Both the position numbers and the translations under genes were made by a program. Below, in pieces: positions 3,324-52,056 of a stretch of 64,000 bases of DNA (positions are counted from its first letter, which is position 1; the number at the start of each line of letters is the position of its first letter). The notes under the pieces are model-generated. The model did not search any database and had not been told where the DNA came from. It saw only the letters and a program-made list of their open reading frames with translations. Source of the stretch: Octopus vulgaris (lineage: Eukaryota); the NCBI GenBank assembly GCA_951406725.2, contig OX597816.1, positions 131,192,001 to 131,256,000 of the forward strand. Reading direction: 5' to 3'.

Positions 3324-3330
<7 letters not shown>
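2892..3330 (+). mobile_element. CR1-type LINE 3' end fragment (pseudogenised)
   Basis: Translates to DLLESVQRRATKRIP...YSERL..LGMDSLKLRRL and NTRGHAYKV...RKHFFTLRVAEAWNKLP, the typical CR1 ORF2 C-terminus. Ends at (TTA)n/(TA)n. Confidence 0.85.
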
Positions 3331-3383
<53 letters not shown>

Positions 3384-3502
3384 GCAAGTGATTTGATCTG
3401 AGATCGTGTGCTGGAACGAAAACAATTGCAGCATGGAAGGTGTTTGTAAGCCATTTAAGAAACACACAAAAGCCGTTCAATTCACTTCAACATTAAGTTT
3501 AA

Positions 3503-3553
3503 TTTGTCAAAATATTTTCGTCGCTATAAGACCGCAACCTGTTCACTGACAAA
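3503..3553 (-). ncRNA. Type I hammerhead-like motif, G3:C8 core variant
   Basis: Minus strand: TTTGTCA (helix I) GTGAACA G GTTGC-ggtcttata-GCGAC (helix II) GAA AATATT (palindromic helix III) T TGACAAA (helix I). Confidence 0.65.
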
Positions 3554-3573
3554 AATGAAATGCAGCACGGATT

Positions 3574-3624
3574 TTTGTCAGTGAACAGGTCGCGGTCTTA
3601 TAGCAACGAAAATATTTTGACAAA
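3574..3624 (+). ncRNA. Type I hammerhead-like motif, G3:C8 core variant
   Basis: TTTGTCA GTGAACA G GTCGC-ggtcttata-GCAAC GAA AATATT T TGACAAA. One C-A mismatch in helix II. Confidence 0.6.
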
Positions 3625-3788
3625 TTAAACTTAATGTTGAAGTGAATTGAATGGCTTTTGTGTGTTTCTTAAATAATAATAATAATAATAATAATAAAAA
3701 GTGACAACAAAAGAATGAGACCTCGATATCAGGTAAATAGAGGATTATTTATATATGTATAATTTAGAACAAACAGTAAGTTGTCATC

Positions 3789-6600: not shown

Positions 6601-7159
6601 TGTATGTATATGTTTGAAAAGATTTGTAGAGGTAAGTAGATATTTATGAAAAACAAGAACAAAAATGCTACTTTCTTAAAATTGGGTACATTTTAATTTT
6701 CCTTTTACATCTTTCAGTTTTTGAAAAACCTTATCAAAAATATGTACTAAAATGGAATATGTAAAGAGAAAAGAATTATTTAAAAAATTAAATTAAAATT
6801 AGAATTAAGATTAACATTCATAGTTTACTTTCTTTTTTCCTGCAAGAACACGTAATAATATCCTTTGGTTCTGGTAGCATGACAAGTTCAACTGACTGTA
6901 ACTGCAAATTACTACTATCTGCCTTTGTAAATTGAATAGTGTGGTCAAGACTTGTTTTCTTAGGAGTGGCTGTAGCCATTGAATAACTAGCAGCAGTAAT
7001 AATAATAGTCGTTGTGGTGAAGTTGTTCCCCCTGGGGTTTTAATAGAAATCAGGTTCTTCAATTCCTTGTCTTTATTTCTTATACACGCACTCACCCGTA
7101 TAAACATATACATATATACATACATATAGATGCATACACACACTCATATATATACATGC

Positions 7160-17173: not shown

Positions 17174-18853
17174 CTTGTCAATAGCCTGGATAGACTATAA
17201 AAAAGCTTTTGATAGCCTACCACATAGATTAAGGAATGCTGGAAATGCATAAAATAGCACCTACTCTGCAAAACTTTTTGTCTGTATGTATGAGATCATG
17301 GAGAACCACACTGACTTTGAACAGTGACAATGAATCTCTAAATGCTGGAGATGTAAAACTTTCATGTGGCATTTTCCATGGTGACTCACTATCACCACTC
17401 CTCTTTTGTTTAGCCTTAATACCTTTCTCAAAATTGCTCAATGATGCATAATACGGTTATAAAATGTTTGATAAAAATATAAATCATCTCATTTACATGG
17501 ATGATTTAAAGCTCTTTGCAAAAAATAACCAACAACTCAAGGGCTTACTAGCAATTGTTAAACAATTCAATGATGACATCAGAATGCAATTTGACCTCGA
17601 TAAATGTGCAAAAGCTACCTTTATCAAAGGAAAATGACAGAAACATCTAACATTAACCTTGACCAACAGAATGTCATAAAAGTGTTAGAACCAGCAGAGA
17701 GCTACAAATACCTAGGGGTACTTGAAGGGGACAGAATCAGGCATTCAGTGATGAGGGAAAGGATCAAGAGAGAATGTTATTGCAGGGTGAGAGCCATACT
17801 TGAGACAGAGCTGAATGCAAGAAACAGGATCGAAGTGATCAATGCTTTAGCCATACCAGTCTTGACTTACAGTTTCAATATCATTAACTGGTCAATTACT
17901 GAAATATGTAATCTTGACAGAAAAATACGAAAACTGTTGGCAATGCATAGAATGCACCACCCTAAGGCAGATATAGAACGGATTTATCTGCCAAGAAAAG
18001 AAGGAGGCCATGGACTTTTACAACTGGCATTAACAATGAAGATTACCACAATTGGCCTAGACGCCTACCAGAAAAACTCTGAGGAATGGATGTTAAAACT
18101 TGTCTCAAAACATGAAAACAAGAAAACATCATACTCAGTAACAAAACAGGCAAAGGAATATCTAAGTGAATTCCAAATACAACAAATTCCGGAATTAGAC
18201 ATACGAGAAACAAGTGCAGGAAAAGCTAAGCTCATGAAAACCTGTGCTAAAACTACTGCCTTAGATATTCTGACTGATAAATGGCAAGAAAAACCTCTCA
18301 ATGACAAATACCCAAAGAGAGCGAATAATGCCGATGTTGACAAAGCCCTTACTCATCAATGGCTAATGGCTTCTGGCTTAAAATCTGAAATAGAAGGGTT
18401 TATCATAGCAGCCCAAGATCAATGCCTACCCTCAAGGAACTACCAGGCCAACATATTAAAGAACGGCAGCTTCCCAACAAAATGGAACTATTGATCATGT
18501 TGTCTCCAAGTGCAGTCTTCTTGTGCCTACAGAGTATCTAAACAGGCATGATAGAGCTGCACAATATATTCACTGGGTAATTTGCAAAAACCTGGACTTG
18601 CCCCATGATAAAAACTGGTGAGAATACAAACCACCTCCAGTGCTTGAAAATGACCACATCTCACTCCTCTGGAACTTCACCATTCAAACTGACAGAGAGA
18701 TAGATACAAATAGGCCAGGCATCATATTGAAAGACTTCAGACAAAAATCATGCCTCCTCATTGATATGACTGCCCCAATCGATATAAACGTATCTGTCAA
18801 GACCTACCAAAAACTGAGCAAGTATAAAGATCTTGAAATAGAAATTAGCAAAA
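17171..18853 (+). mobile_element. R4/Dong-like RLE non-LTR retrotransposon, 5'-truncated and frameshifted
   Basis: NLSIAWIDYKKAFDS, GIFHGDSLSPLLFCLAL, HLIYMDDLKLF, YKYLG, RIYLPRKEGGHGL, FIIAAQDQCL, DHVVSKC...YLNRHD and RLE RPGIIL...LIDMTAP...KLSKYKDL. Begins in a (TAA)n tract. Confidence 0.9.
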
Positions 18854-28190: not shown

Positions 28191-28527
28191 GTTATATATA
28201 TATATGAAACGGATTTTGTGTGTTTCTTAAATGGCCCATAAAAACCTTCCACGCTGCAATTGTTTCTGTTCCAGCACATGATCTCAGATCAGGTCACTTG
28301 CTATGCAAGTACATTTTCAAAATATATACACACACGAATAACTAGAAAAAAAACAAGAATCCACACACATATTTCTAGATATTCACAGATACTGAAACAT
28401 GTCACACATGCACAATACGACCCTCCATACATGAGTATTCTCTTGAGGAAAATATATATTTAGTGCAATTTTGAGGAGTAAATATGGATATATATGTATG
28501 AATGTGTATGGCTATATATATATGTAC

Positions 28528-30299: not shown

Positions 30300-31881
30300 A
30301 TATGTATATCATCTTGATCTGGCAGAGTTTCTATAGCTGGATGTCCTTCCGAACGCCAACCACTCCGAGAATGTAGCGGGTGCTTTTACGTGCCACCGGC
30401 ACGGAAACCAGTTAGCCGCTCTGGCAATGATCACACTCGGATGCTGCTCTTAGCACCCTATTAGCATGGGGCTCAAGTGCTAATAAGGTGACGCTGGTAA
30501 TGATCACACCCAAATGGTGACTTTTATGTGCCACTGGCACAGACGCCAGTTAGCTGCTCTGTCAACGATGACACTCGTATGGTGCTCTTTGCACCCTGCT
30601 AGCATCAAATTTGCCAGTCATCAAATTTAATTTTAATTTCACTTGACTCAACAGGTCTGCGCAAGCAGAGTTTAGTGTCCAAAGAAAGAAAAGGTACGCA
30701 TAAGTGGGATGGTTACGTCCAGACATAGGCCACGAGGTTATGATCTCATTTGGCTTGCCGGGTCTTCTCAAGCACAGCATATTTCCAAAAGTCTCGGTCA
30801 CTAGTCATTTCCTTGGTGAAACCTAAAGTTCAAAGGTTATGCTTCACCACTTCATCCCAGGTCTTCCTGGGTCTACCTCTTCCACAGTTTCTCTCAACCG
30901 CTAGGGTGTGGCACTTTTTCACACAGCTATCCTTATCCATTCTCGCCACATGACCATACCAGCACAGTCATCTCTCTTGCACACCACATCTGATGCTTCT
31001 TCGGCCCAACTTTTCTCTCAAGGTACTTACACTCTGTCAAGTATGCACACTGACATTACACATCCATTGGATCATACTGGCTTCATTCCTTGCAAGCTTA
31101 CGCATATCCTCAGCAGTCACAGCTCATGTTTCACTGCCATGTAGCATGGCCGTTCGTAAACATGCGTCATACAGTCTACCTTTTACTCTGAGCAAGGCAC
31201 CCTTTGTCACCAGCAGAGGTAAGAGCTCTCTGAACTTTGCTGAAGGTATTCTTATTCTAGCAGCTACACTTTCAACACACCCTCCCTCGCTACTGACTTG
31301 GTCACCTAGGTAACGGAAGCTATCAACTACTTCTAGGTTTTCTCTCTGGAATATGGCGGAAGTAGTTCTCTGCATTTTCAGTGTTTATTGCTCCCGAGCA
31401 TCTGCCACATACAAAAACTATCTTCCCAGTTAGCCTTCCTTTGATATTACTGCACCTCTTATGTGTCCATAGCTTACACTGGGTACATCTTATAGAATCT
31501 CTACTTATGCCTTTACTATAGATCGAGCAGGGCCATCTACTTGAAGACATTTGTGGTTTGCCTGCCTTCTTATTTATTAGGACATTGGTTTTAGCTAGGT
31601 TGACTCTAAGGCCCTTTGATTCTAATCCTTGTTTCCATACTGGAAACTTCTCTTCTAGTTCTGATAGTGACTCAGCTATTAGAGCAAGGTCATCAGCATA
31701 GAGGAGCTCCCAGGGGTATCCTGTCTTGAATTCCTCCGTTGTTGCCTGGAGGACTATGATAAATAGGAGGGGGCTGAGGACTGAATCTTGGTGGACACCT
31801 ACCTCTACCCTGAATTCTTCAGTGTACTCGTTGCCAACCCTCACCTTACTGACATTGTCCCTGTACATGGCTTGCACGGCT
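30300..31881 (-). mobile_element. RTE-clade LINE, 5'-truncated (RT, C-terminus and 3' UTR)
   Basis: VGVHQDSVLSPLLFIIVL, ELLYADDLAL, GLRVNLAKT, C-x2-C...C-x2-CKLWTHKRC insert, FRYLGDQVS, LYDACLRTAMLHGSET. Confidence 0.92.
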
Positions 31882-31892
31882 CTATATGTATA

Positions 31893-31931
<39 letters not shown>

Positions 31932-31992
31932 TTTGATACTTTGATAGGTTTCGGCCATTATTGGCCCAGGCCATGTCTAACTTAATAGCACC

Positions 31993-32037
<45 letters not shown>

Positions 32038-32041
<4 letters not shown>

Positions 32042-32218
32042 ATCCAAACATGAAAACACAAAGAGAATATACAACAACGTGAGGACTGGAACAAGTATAG
32101 TATTATTGGACGCTTAGGAAAGAAGGAGCTCTTTGTCAGAAACATAGGAAAAGGAAAGATCCAAAGAAGGGGAGACGGAGGAAAAAAAATCGCCAACGGT
32201 ACACACGCGGTCACATTT
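32038..32218 (-). mobile_element. Short element in (TA)n with a partial hammerhead-like 5' half
   Basis: Minus strand GTTT CTGACAA AGAGC TCC, resembling the CTGTTGA AGAGC arrangement at 8471. The GAAA half is missing. Confidence 0.35.
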
Positions 32219-32255
32219 TATATATGTGTGTGTGTGTGCATGTTTGTGTATATTT

Positions 32256-32311
<56 letters not shown>

Positions 32312-32314
<3 letters not shown>

Positions 32315-35250
32315 TTCAACCTTTCCCAGTAGCTGAGCTGTTGCAAAGAGATGATCTTTGTGAATCTTCTCTGGATTGCTTCAAGGTCTGCTGTTAATTT
32401 CACACTAGTGGGTGACCATAGCTGTGAGCAGTAATTCAGGTGACTGAGGACAAATGTCCACCAGAAGACCATCATGGTTTCCTTATCTCTGGTTCTGAAT
32501 GTTATTAGGATCCAGCCAGCCAGCCAGCCATCTGCACTTTGTCGCCATCCTGGTAATGTGCACTTGGAAAGAGGTATCATCACTCATGTCGATACCCTGG
32601 TCCCTCACTGACTTAGGCTCTGGGATTGAAATTACCTGTGGACCAGTGTACCCTGTAAGTTTCATATTCAGTTTTGAATGCTGGTAGCGCAGGGCTTGGA
32701 ATTTTTCAGCATTAAGCTGCATATTATTACCCTCAGCCCATCTGTAAATTGAGTCCAACTCCTGCTGTAGGTGTGCAACATCGCTGGAGTTCTGTATTTT
32801 CTGCAAGACTTTCGTATCATCTGCATAGCTTGCAAGGGTGGCTATCCGGGCATTTGAGGGCATATCTGAGAGGGCCACTATAAAAAGCAGTGGTCCCAAG
32901 ACAGTGCCCTGTGGAAGACTGCTCACTATTTGTGTGTTCATAGAGATGGCTCCATTAGCCACTACTGCCTGACTCCTATCTTTCAGGAAGTCATGTAACC
33001 ACTCTCCAAGTTTTCCAGCTATGCCGAGGTCACGCAGTTTGTGGCATATCATACCATGATCCACCTTGTCAAAAGCTTTTGTAAAATCAAGTTATATTAC
33101 GTCCACATTTGATTTGTTGAGTAACTGCCTAAACACCCAGTCATAATGTAAGAGCTGGGTCAGGCAGCTCCTACCTGGCCGAAAACCATGCTGGGTATCA
33201 CTCAGCAAGTTATTTTCTTCAAGGAATGCGATTAGTTTCCCTCTGACTATCCGGTATTTGACTTTGCTGATGTGTGAAGTCAGAGAGATAGACCTATAGT
33301 TTTTGGCATCTGCTCTACTTCCCCCTTTATGTATTGGGCTTATTATACCCTCCTTCAGCTTGCTTGGCAGTTTGCCATTTGTAAGAAAGCTCTGGAAGAG
33401 AATCTGGAGGGGTTTTGCCAGGGCATGCTTACATGATTTGAGGAGAATTTCTGGGAAACCATCAGGGCAGGCAGTTGAGTTTGTGTCCACTTCATCTATG
33501 GCTAGTAGTATATCTTCCTCGCTAATGTCAATGTATTCCATTGTAACTGCTCCACTGGTTATAGGTGAGGTGGCAAAGAAGTCCACTGGTTTGTTCACTT
33601 GTCTGTGTTCCAACGGGGTGGTAAAGACACTTTTGAACTGGTCATTCAGTATCTCACTGATCTTAGTTGAACTGTCTGTGAGGGAGCCATCCTTTTGGAG
33701 GAGGGGTCCTATCTTGTAGTGTACTAAGGCTGTTTCTTTCGCATAATGAAAGAAGGCCTTTGGGTTTGACTTAATGTTTTTTATAACCCAGGCTTCTTTA
33801 CTTTCTCCCTCACATAGGATTGTTGCAGCCTTTTTTTGATCTCCATCAGTGTTGTTTTTAGGCGGGACGTTTTGCTACTTTTGGGATGTTGCTGGAGTTG
33901 ATTTGCAACCTTCGTCCCTCATCTCATGAGGATCTTCCTCTCCCTTGGAATCTTGTTCCTATTTGTTTTGGCCTTGTGCTCTGGGACATATTTCTGGCAT
34001 ATGGCTTGCACAACAGACATGAAACATTCTAGTTTCATGTCAATGTCTGGTGTGGAGAGACATTTCGGCCAGTCCTCTCTGAGGATCTCTTTTTGGATCG
34101 ATTTCCAATCCGCTTTGTGGAAGTTCAGATTGGAGAAATTTCGGGTGCTTCCCTTTGGTTGTATGTCTCTGGTTGCTTTCGGCCCAAACATAGACAGCTC
34201 TATTATGTTGTGGTCTGAGACTAATGTCGGTGTCACTTTCACATCATGAATGATGTCCATATTGTTCATGAAGCAGAGATCCAGAATGTTATTCGCCTTA
34301 GTTGGTCTGATTACAGCTTGCTCCATGAATAGGGCATTGGTGAGGTTGAGCAGGGACTCCACCTGTGCTTGCTTGCAATGAGTCATTCTTGAGAGTATCA
34401 GACCTTCGGGCCATTTGACGTTGGGGAAGTTGAAATCACCCATAAGAAATATGGTCACGTGGTGTTCCAGATTCATGAGGATTTCTTTAATTCTTGTGAG
34501 GCAATCTTCAAACTTGCCTACGTGGTTTGGAGCATCTGGTGAGCAATATGTATTGCATATGACTATATTATGTTGTCTTATGTATACAATTAGAGTGTCA
34601 CATACCGAATTTGAGTATGACAGTTAAACCTGGAGTGTGAGATCATCACAGATATATACAGCAACTCAACCATGGCTCCTTTCCCTTCTGTCTGTTCGCA
34701 GTATAGCATAGTATGGTACATGTACTTCTGCATCCTCTATATCAGGGCTGAGGTGAGTTTCCACGAGTGCTATTCATAGGGCTTGATTGCATGCAGTAAG
34801 ATCTCTCAGGAAAGAAATTTTGTTTTTATTTTGATGCAACAGGCCCCCAATATTTAGTAACAGTATTGCGGTGACGACTGTACAGGCGTTAAGGAAGGCC
34901 ATCCTGTGTCTGTTGACTGTGGTGGTCTTGCATAGTGGTGGGCAAGGTTCCTTTGTTTGTGATTGGTGTAGCCAGGTTAGCTGCTGTACAATCTTTTGCG
35001 CCATGCACAAAAAAGACTCTTGCTCAGCTGCTGCATTGCTCAGAACATCTGAGGAGCACACTTCTTTTCTGAATGTTTTACTGGGAGACATTTGTTGTCT
35101 TTCCTCAGTGAAGTTTTTCTCTTTAAGGCCCCTGTAGTTCTGGCAGGGTATCGGGTGGGCAAACCGGCAGTTTTTGTCGTCCTCCCCATGCCAACATTTG
35201 CCTTGCAGGTTCTTGGGTGCTTTCCAGATTTCTTCTTTCCTGTCGGGTTT
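32312..35250 (-). mobile_element. CR1-clade LINE ORF2 (APE endonuclease + RT), frameshifted
   Basis: MGDFNFP, NILDLCF, SDHNII (APE); CPDGF, KNYRSISLTSHISKV, QHGFRPGRSCLTQLL, PQGTVLGPLLF, YADDTK, LNYCSQLWSP, LEAIQRRFTK (RT and tail). Confidence 0.93.
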
Positions 35251-47935: not shown

Positions 47936-50672
47936 TCACAATTTTCTCCATTTTGATACTTTACCTTCAGCCATCATTTGTTGTTTCTTTTTCTCCTTCA
48001 ATTGACTTAAGAAACTCTCCAATTCATCAAGAGTTTCTGTTGACTGAATCATTTTTATAGTGTCATTAGTGCTCTCATTGAAACTTTTATTTCCATCTTC
48101 ATAAATCTGCTTCCCACCCACTTCTTTCATTTCTTTCTCTCCATCAAATATCTGCTCTCTTTGAGTAGTATTACTATTAGAGATAATTTCTGAAACACTT
48201 TCATCTTGTTCTTCAACCTCTTCATTGTGTCTGCATAACTTTGAATCTTTCTTTCCTGCTGTCTCAATCAAAGGAGAAGAAGGAAGTGGAGGTAACAGTA
48301 AAGGAGACTGTTGTTCAGGAAATGGTGGAAGAGGTGGAGGTGATACACAAGTAGGCAAAGGTGGCTGTTGTTTATCTTCATTAGTCAGTAAACTAGTTTC
48401 ATTTTCTGAACAGGATTTACTAGAACTATTCATTCCCATATTCTCAAAGCATCTATCAGATTTTACAAGTGTTGTTTCTGAACATTCCTCAGTAATTTGT
48501 GACATATTTTTAACTTTCTGTACTGATTGATTGCAGTCACTTTCATCACAATTGCCCAGTAAAGAAACTTTAGTAACAGAGTTAGAAGTCTCATAATTGA
48601 TTTGTTTTGATGCAATATTTCTACGTTTCCGATTGTCTTCACCAATACTTAAAGTAACAGTGTCTTTAAATTCAGTATTTTCATTATCATCTATAGTTCT
48701 TACCTCGTCTGAAGAACATTTAACAAACCTTGAACATCTATCAGTTTCTGGAATTTTTTTCACATTTTCTAACTTCAAAGTATCAGTATCTAGTGTTTTA
48801 CCACTAGATTCTGAATCTTGAAACAAATTTTTCCTATCCATAAATTTCCTGTCAGCTTCTAGAAATTTATCAACAGAATCATTAATTCTAGAAGATGAAC
48901 CTACTAATTTATCTGAACCTGATGGGCTCTTTCCAGTAGCTGATTGATGGTAATAAGCATGAGAGCTAGAGTCTTCTTTATTAGATTTTGGAATGTAACA
49001 TCCCTTTGAACTAGACTCAGATGATCTAGAATTAGTTTCTTCTTTTCTACGTCTAAAATCATTCTTATCATCTTCATGAGACTTTGTGTGTTTGGAACTC
49101 CTACTATGGCTTGATCTATGACTTTTATAGTCTTTATCCTCAGGCTTTGATAATTTTTTCTCAGACACTGTCTCTTCTTCTTTAAGTTTTTCAGTCTTTC
49201 GTAAACGTTTTGCAGTTGTTTCAGAATCCAAAACACATTTCTTTGATTGATAACTCTTTGATTCATCACAACTGTCATTATGTTTATATTTTAAATTAAA
49301 AACTGAATGATTATCTAAAGATCTCTTCAATTTATCTCGAGTTCTGTTTGAAGAAGCAGAACTAGAACTAGATGAAGTATTTGATGAAGGGGATGAGGAA
49401 GAAGATGAAGACGTAGAAGTGGATGATGATGATGATGATGACGATGATGAAGATGATGATGATGATGATGATGAAGATGAAGAAGAATCAGTAGAACTAC
49501 TTCTGTGTCTGCCACATTTTCCTTTCCTTTGCAAAGATTGCTTTATATTAGTATCAAGACTGCTGGATTCCTTTGAACTTTGATGTTTGCTATTAGAATT
49601 AGACTTTTTATTTACTGAATGTGTATGTTTCTGTCGTGGTTCAATACACACACTTCTCCTATGACTACGGGTACTTTCAACAATATCTGGTAGTTTGAAT
49701 TTTTGGCTGCCATCATCATCGCGATTCAGTTCAGGGAGACTTGCAGTTGGTGAATGTTTCCTGGCATATTTATAAGCTGGTTCATTAGACTTGTGTTTTC
49801 TATCCCGACTCAGACTTCGTTTCTTGCCTATTTTATTATCATGTGTGAAATACAAGTCAGAATCCTTTCCACCTCCTTTCATTGAGTAGGATTCATCAAC
49901 AGCTTGTTTACCATGAAGATCCTTCAATTGTCTTCTTTTACTTGATTCTATGTGTTGATGAGATGTTAAATGTTTATTTGACTTTTTGCTGTCATTGCTA
50001 GGTGATCGGCTCTTCACCCTATAGTTACTTTTCCTGTCTTGGCTGTCATCATAACACTCCTTAGAATTTAAACTGCTGTATTTACACATAGATTGATAAT
50101 TATCATCAAAAATGACTTCTTGTAATGTCTTTTTTGACTTGGAATGGCTCTCTTCATTTGGAGGAAATCTATGAGATCTTTCTCGGTTGATATAAATCTC
50201 TTTGAACTCTTGACTCTGTGATCTGACTTTAGTCCTGTTCAAATGATCACTGATGTTAGATGAAGGTTTTCTATAGGTGGAGGGCACAGAGTCATAACTA
50301 TGTGGAGAATTATCTCGAGATAACTTTCCATCCCATACTGAATAGTCAGGAGATTTAGAATTAGTCCTACTCCGTCTGTCACGGATTGACTTATTTTGCA
50401 CTAACCTGGTTTCTGGATTTATCTTATAGCTTTTCCCAGGTGAGCTATGCCGTTCCCAATGGCTATGGCTGAATTCAGAGACTGTTTGACTATCAGAAAA
50501 GTGGGAATCACGAGTATCGGAGCGACTTTCATTATGTGTCTCTGAGTGGCGACTATGCTGGGATTTATGGGAGTCTACATCAAGAGAACGATGCATTCTT
50601 GATGGATTCAGGTTTAAAGAATGTGAAGAGGATGCATCAGAAGCTGAGCCATCATGGTACTTGTGATCTTTT
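47936..50672 (-). CDS. TTC14: TTC14 terminal exon: ~911-aa Ser/Arg/Lys/Asp-rich low-complexity tail
   Basis: Uninterrupted 2.7-kb ORF. Acceptor tttttctcag; phase 2 joins AG of the previous exon to give R-KDHKYHDG. Poly-Ser and PPLP tracts. TGA at 47938-47936. Confidence 0.88.
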
Positions 50673-50756
50673 CTGAGAAAAAAAGAAGAAAGACAATGAA
50701 AATCAGATTGAAAAATAACTATGCATTCATATATATCTACAATATACATATACATA

Positions 50757-51734: not shown

Positions 51735-52056
51735 TACAGAGATGTACTTGCATAGCAAGTGACTTGATCTGAGATCGTGTGCTGGAACGAAAACAGTTGC
51801 AGCGTTGAAGGTGTTTATAAGCCATTTAAGAAACACACAAAAACCGTTAGATTCACTTCAACATTTAAATTTAATTTGTCAAAATATTTTCGTCGCTTTG
51901 AGACTGCAACCTGTTAGCACGATATTTTTGTCAGTGAACAGGTCACAGTCTCAAAGCGAGGAAAATATTTTGGCAAATTAAATTTAAATGTTGAAGTGAA
52001 TCTAACGGTTTTTGTGTGTTTCTTAAATGGCTTACAAACACCTTCCACGCTGCAAT
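51735..52056. mobile_element. Fold-back element family A, second copy (G3:C8 hammerhead-like motif at 51927-51977 +)
   Basis: Inverted arms spanning 51797-52055. TTTGTCA GTGAACA G GTCAC-agtctcaaa-GCGAG GAA AATATT T TGGCAAA. Flanked by (TA)n. Confidence 0.85.

Follow-up and report, generated by a model that had tools for sequence, protein, structure and literature searches.

The palindrome at positions 3,503 to 3,624 of this 64,000-nt stretch of Octopus vulgaris DNA (hereafter the window) carries two hammerhead-like motifs in which the 3:8 core pair reads G:C rather than C3 and G8. This raises the question of whether the motif is a natural ribozyme variant or a chance word in a fold-back repeat, and of what placed it in a palindrome.

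The fold-back locus and its hammerhead motifs

The initial annotation described one motif in both arms of the palindrome and in a further copy at 51927-51977. Both arms bear this out. On the plus arm, helix I (3574-3580) is followed by GTGAACA (3581-3587), an extra G (3588), helix II (3589-3593/3603-3607, with a single C.A mismatch in the window copy), GAA (3608-3610), AATATT (3611-3616), U17 (3617) and the second strand of helix I (3618-3624). The minus-arm motif (3553-3503) is the better paired of the two, with 5/5 helix II pairs formed, one being U.G. The third copy retains the core, but its helix II is broken and its helix I has a G.U change, and no hammerhead fold is predicted for it. The inverted repeat itself exceeds the span noted earlier, with arms of 104 nt each (3453-3556 and 3571-3674) that are 97% complementary. 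The features of this locus and its relatives in the window are:

3574..3624, plus strand: minimal type I hammerhead motif with G3:C8 (G3 3581, C8 3586, predicted U17 3617; one helix II mismatch)
3503..3553, minus strand: minimal type I hammerhead motif with G3:C8 (G3 3546, C8 3541, predicted U17 3510; helices I and II in the predicted fold)
3381..3556, minus strand: main copy of a ~205-nt element (element positions ~15-191; most of the 3' tail; terminates in a (TA)n run)
3557..3674, plus strand: inverted partner copy (element positions 1-119; begins at the family's fixed 5' end and finishes in (AAT)n)
3324..3380, no strand: (ATT)n/(TA)n microsatellite flank (target)
3675..3700, no strand: (AAT)n flank
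51752..51915, minus strand: second fold-back insertion of the family, tailed arm; starts inside the core
51924..52056, plus strand: second insertion, tailless arm, with the decayed G3:C8 motif at 51927-51977
28208..28304, plus strand: 3' fragment of the same ~205-nt element, without the motif

When compared with the minimal type I hammerhead core, U4-G5-A6, A9, G12-A13-A14, A15.1-U16.1 and H17 are all present. The literal C3 and G8 are absent, and positions 3 and 8 form a Watson-Crick G:C pair instead. The motif is invisible to CUGANGA descriptors, as had been anticipated, and Rfam misses it too: a scan of 3480-3650 gave 46 matches at E<=10 with no hammerhead, and for the whole window there was none among the matches listed (150 of 240), nearly all of which pair microsatellites with miRNA models.

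The canonical-core motifs that were said to lie elsewhere in the window amount at best to two CTGATGA words (53369, plus strand; 51197, minus strand), related decayed motifs of another repeat that pass neither of two helix descriptors; the stretch before the 51197 copy ends in CTAGT, which we take to be reminiscent of a Helitron 3' end. The window also contains a decayed U3:A8 motif at 6737 (minus strand), similar to that of locus L077; a 939-aa open frame at 47936-50755 (minus strand), serine-rich and charged, which is probably a large host exon; and ORF fragments, read by eye, resembling non-LTR retrotransposon endonuclease or reverse transcriptase (RT) at 31323-34476 (minus strand) and 17604-18494 (plus strand).

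A short non-coding element with PLE-type insertions

Genome-wide searches were run on the 2.8-Gb, 227-contig assembly. The pattern TGANNANN{12,24}GAAAATATTTTGAC, with positions 3, 7 and 8 left free, gave 3968+3853 = 7,821 matches against 4+5 for the reversed control, so the motif is not a product of chance. Among the first 100 of the 7,821 matches listed, C8 is present in 94, another base in 3, and 3 are out of register. The motif sits in a non-coding element of ~205 nt, whose 40 top-scoring candidates show 96-98% identity to the window copy. Copies of the family share a sharp 5' limit ~24 nt before G3; upstream of it, in the 100 of 403 cases listed, lies either unrelated flank or an inverted partner with a variable breakpoint.

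We surveyed insertions at 52 loci after removing 8 duplicate loci. The 3' ends fall into two groups ~55 nt apart, at ~145-154 (27 ends) and ~200-206 (50 ends). An inverted partner accompanies the element in 32 of the 52 loci, the other 20 being solo copies; 29 have (TA)n flanks, and 16 show a non-simple flanking duplication of 8-23 nt, which in 4 of those 16 is mostly TA repeats. Within fold-backs the 3' tail is confined to one arm, and the breakpoints of the head-to-head junction vary. Insertions of Penelope-like elements (PLEs) are described as having an inverted 5' copy, a tail at just one of the two ends and a bias to microsatellites or (TA)n (PMC8557442), and the one-sided tail has been tied to two RT start sites (PMC11167929). 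The inverted partners, one-sided tail, (TA)n targets and two 3' ends of the octopus family match these published features and thus point to PLE-type insertion; target duplications of variable length count as a further PLE hallmark. We conclude that the ~205-nt family is likely a non-autonomous PLE-type retroelement and the fold-back an insertion product with an inverted 5' partner, mobilisation by PLE proteins being suggested by the insertion pattern. This identity and the origin of the palindrome as an inverted 5' partner went beyond the initial annotation, as did the sequestration of the motif in a read-through fold-back described below.

Searches for an autonomous parent of the window family returned none in 30 GIY-YIG loci, where one unrelated nested copy was the only find, and none among the 100 of 403 5' ends listed. 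No RT or endonuclease lay within ~1.5 kb of 30 old copies, and 42 filtered 3' ends, under a filter that could drop the true one, gave no shared continuation past the 3' end. Loose ends in four public runs agreed at only ~0.5 beyond either element end.

A retrozyme, with tandem copies and circular RNA, was set aside, there being no junction of 3' end to 5' end among the 100 5' ends listed; one direct pair of element copies was seen, separated by a TA run. A B-box-like word on the antisense strand was dropped on account of its absence from older subfamilies. At G000:C28:25,049,879-25,065,684 (L002, L011-L013), element copies are spaced ~5.2 kb apart within a larger tandem duplication. No listed public run that holds the element is recorded as RNA, and assembled contigs do not reveal RNA ends. 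At L003:1490-1692, contigs from run X7, which we guess to be RNA, have 14 A>G sites, and each of the other three runs has 3; this excess, from a run whose organism differs and which has no matched DNA, might reflect A-to-I editing of the double-stranded RNA of a fold-back.

The core within the window family

Fixation of G3:C8 in a multicopy family, as proposed earlier, is evident from young copies, where G3 and C8 are each present in 66/67. The 29 old copies, 71-82% identical to the query, keep G3 in 17/25 and C8 in 23/25, with A3 in 6/25. A core better conserved than its flanks across subfamilies had been put forward as a check, and the outcome depends on the level at which it is read. Between old and young subfamily majorities (leaving out L149, which had been chosen by a core pattern), 0/12 core sites changed against 31/136 outside, a borderline difference (one-sided Fisher p=0.053). 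The sites that changed from old to young include N7, loop II and the helix III palindrome, which went from AATT to AATATT and is palindromic both times. Copy by copy, the old core is no better conserved than the rest (0.81 vs 0.87).

As for covariation in helices I and II, helix II variation in old copies was rejected as CpG decay, and helix I pair 6 is mixed in the old/young comparison. A total of 271 family copies lack G3, and among the 100 of these listed, C8 is kept in 91 and a compensating N8 appears in 4. From this we infer that inserted copies decay neutrally and without compensation, the window copy being a relic. Sequence variation within the family lends modest support to a compensatory origin of G3:C8.

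All four Watson-Crick pairs occur at 3:8 in octopus PLEs

A search for GIY-YIG endonucleases led to intact PLEs with a 781-aa RVT_1+GIY-YIG ORF and a U3:A8 motif in both pLTRs. The ORF has a Cys motif before the endonuclease, and we read these elements as Neptune-type by the clade description in PMC8557442. Two intact, apparently young examples have U3:A8 in both pLTRs at L091:1279 and 6066 and at L092:738 and 6288; they have an upstream ORF of ~350 aa without a Pfam match, and many genome copies keep the 781-aa frame open. In both L076 (minus strand, 2678) and L082 (plus strand, 2505) the U3:A8 motif has GCA for GAA (A13C).

A3:U8 lies behind GIY-YIG ORFs (L081, L236), and its pattern matched 1713+1755 times (3,468) against 807+832 (1,639) in the control, an excess of over a thousand copies. 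The A3:U8 PLE families (L081:2050, L134, L144-L146) have an ACCGGT palindrome, a 4-6-bp helix I and a very short helix II. Two further candidate links to A3:U8, L133 and L218, were dropped, the motif being 950 nt away and probably part of another insertion. C3:G8 was found in L064 and is rarer than U:A, A:U and G:C.

G3:C8 also recurs in a second family (L179-L208), which has an ACCGGT palindrome and a different helix I and flanks; by eye, the two families are alike only around the core. In 21/30 loci the motif of this second family lies ~200 nt behind a decayed RT/GIY-YIG ORF, and 26/30 copies keep both G3 and C8, while 13/30 have A14U (11 GAT, 2 AAT). The generic G3:C8 pattern, at 569 matches only slightly above its control (459), was used solely for finding families.

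Motifs of the ACCGGT type matched 4500 times against 10 in the control. By hand count, the first 100 listed comprise 59 U:A, 31 A:U, 1 G:C, 5 U.G, 4 mismatched and 0 C:G, a tally that reflects a handful of families, as the copies are not independent. In a quick endonuclease tree, the U:A, A:U and G:C lineages fall in one clade (SH-aLRT 91).

Every Watson-Crick combination is thus represented at 3:8 among this genome's PLE families. The presence of U:A, A:U and C:G at the same two positions in sister families strengthens the compensatory reading of G3:C8 made in the initial annotation, and this cross-family comparison gives strong support for compensatory 3:8 covariation. From sequence, the G3:C8 motif is likely a natural ribozyme variant missed by standard searches.

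Predicted fold and capacity to cut

In the predicted fold of the whole element (z -1.17), pairing probabilities are 0.97-0.99 across helix II and 0.67-0.98 across helix I. Helices I and II thus flank the core in the solo element, which is not so in read-through of the fold-back: a transcript through 3381-3680 folds as one long hairpin of -174 kcal/mol with the motif buried, so no activity would be expected of the window copy in that RNA. Predicted pairs also link the element's 5'-terminal 11 nt to short segments immediately upstream of each 3' end (P 0.57-0.97; for example L026:1486-1691, minus strand). No covariation was found for this pairing of 5' and 3' ends.

Several predictions argue for weak or absent cleavage. 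The AAUAUU duplex is predicted at -0.2 kcal/mol, compared with -8.3 for ACCGGU and -4.6 for ACAUGU, and a longer 10-nt palindrome register (-3.8 kcal/mol) would pair away A13, A14 and U17. A predicted G3.U17 pair (P~0.67) would compete with G3:C8, much as C3-G17 has been proposed to trap canonical cores (PMC3884650). The UUU cleavage triplet is not unusual, U17 being frequent in the minimal hammerheads published for PLEs (PMC4209133 supplement). Those hammerheads cut poorly, as dimers (PMC4209133), or only with protein (PMC11167929). On these models, the motif would probably cut only weakly, as a dimer or with protein help.

A preferred explanation and its rivals

Together these data make it probable, in our judgement, that the fold-back arose when a ~205-nt non-coding element inserted head to head, likely through copying by a Neptune-type PLE RT/endonuclease, and that it carries a G3:C8 hammerhead motif which selection has likely maintained in the source elements and which is predicted to cut only weakly, as a dimer or assisted by protein. 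Under such a mechanism, a short RNA with a fixed 5' end would be bound by the PLE RT/endonuclease, which would nick A/T-rich DNA, and cDNA synthesis would start from one or the other of two internal sites. With each target strand serving as a primer, the products would be a tailed copy and an inverted tailless copy, the head-to-head fold-back. The hammerhead fold would be under selection in source elements with 3:8 free to take any Watson-Crick identity, and the pair would have shifted among these identities while lineages diverged.

The same element might instead keep a hammerhead-derived fold for protein binding or RT positioning, with no cutting and with 3:8 kept for its shape. Lineages with A14U and A13C have amplified, so these families spread despite core changes expected to harm catalysis; the dimer helix is very weak and competing pairings are predicted; and published minimal hammerheads are themselves poor at cutting. 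In addition, the PAc element inserted in vitro without needing hammerhead cleavage, and its cut site showed no RNA ends (PMC11167929). Against this, subfamilies that have diverged at 23% of the sites outside the core still share U4, G5, A6, A9, G12, A13, A14 and A15.1, and the contact between 3 and 8 belongs to the active conformation (PMC8495972). On balance we regard a purely structural role as rather unlikely, though a serious competitor.

Far less credit can be given to the motif as an unselected passenger, a dead hammerhead whose G3 and C8 arose by chance in one successful source element. Descent would explain the uniformity of the young family, inserted copies do decay without compensation, and the old/young contrast reaches only p=0.053. 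G3:C8 nevertheless recurs in the second family with its different helices and flanks, and 91 of the first 100 ACCGGT-type motifs listed, from several families, are Watson-Crick at 3:8; this family-level covariation appears largely to refute the passenger reading. A MITE or fold-back DNA transposon that contains a hammerhead-like word by accident is scarcely credible. The 104-nt inverted repeat, the TA-rich flanks and a 6-nt stretch in which the 5' and 3' ends are complementary invite that label, which the initial annotation had rightly warned against. Solo copies make up 20/52 loci, however, the arms stand head to head with variable breakpoints, target duplications vary in length and only one arm has a tail, and we rejected a MITE on seeing neither fixed terminal inverted repeats nor a fixed-length target duplication.

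Returning to the preferred explanation, a bolder extension can be offered tentatively, at somewhat less than even confidence: the PLEs of this genome would carry working minimal hammerheads with all four 3:8 pairs, non-canonical cores would be more numerous than the textbook one, and a ~205-nt ribozyme-bearing mini-element, with a 5' end that pairs with each of its RT start sites, would have spread to thousands of copies. If this is true, CUGANGA censuses undercount hammerheads, and some 'ribozyme-less' PLE clades may carry swapped cores.

Significance

What appears new here is the use of all four Watson-Crick pairs at 3:8, natural G3:C8 and A3:U8 cores among them; the chemistry itself was already known. 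Neither of these two was found as a natural core in the literature searched, two reviews (PMC6765202, PMC6155905) included; in the text covered, G3:C8 and A3:U8 are laboratory constructs only or do not appear. Published PLE surveys used CUGANGA or U3:A8 descriptors (PMC4209133; a core-string search in PMC8557442), which are blind to these families. The most valuable result is the four-way 3:8 series rather than the single fold-back locus: sister retroelement lineages using all four pairs provide a natural test of the 3:8 contact, and also bear on whether PLE hammerheads are selected for cutting or for shape only.

Comparison with known hammerheads and elements

The window motif is closest to the minimal type I hammerheads of metazoan PLEs, on which Lunse et al. 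2016 reportedly also worked. Its predicted layout fits the PLE minimal-hammerhead consensus of Cervera and de la Pena 2014 (PMC4209133), sharing with it the type I topology, the extra nucleotide after A9, G10.1-C11.1, a palindromic helix III and a frequent U17; both sets also occur mostly as single motifs in truncated copies, plus close opposite-strand pairs. The window family differs from those motifs, for which C3:G8 and U3:A8 are reported, in having G3:C8, G as the extra nucleotide (consensus H), a 7-bp helix I, an all-A/U palindrome and a short carrier with a fixed 5' end.

Natural U3:A8 cores have been published (Perreault 2011, PMC3088659; Schistosoma Cercyon PLEs, PMC4209133) and share Watson-Crick covariation at positions 3 and 8 with the octopus motifs, which differ in placing a purine at 3 and a pyrimidine at 8 (G3:C8, and A3:U8 in sister families). 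With the engineered double change C3G/G8C, the PAc PLE hammerhead regains part of its cleavage (PMC11167929), and G3:C8 is an engineered rescue in PMC8495972 and PMC3884650 as well. The pair in those partly active mutants is identical to the one described here, which is natural, fixed in thousands of copies and known from sequence. As to the carrier, Chlamys MRC1, a non-autonomous PLE derivative, and Neptune-clade PLEs (PMC8557442) have the same PLE-type ends, microsatellite targets and inverted partners, and the window element is non-coding as in MRC1-type derivatives. In contrast to these, it is only ~205 nt long and combines a sharp 5' limit with a hammerhead motif, and the searches found no autonomous element matching its sequence.
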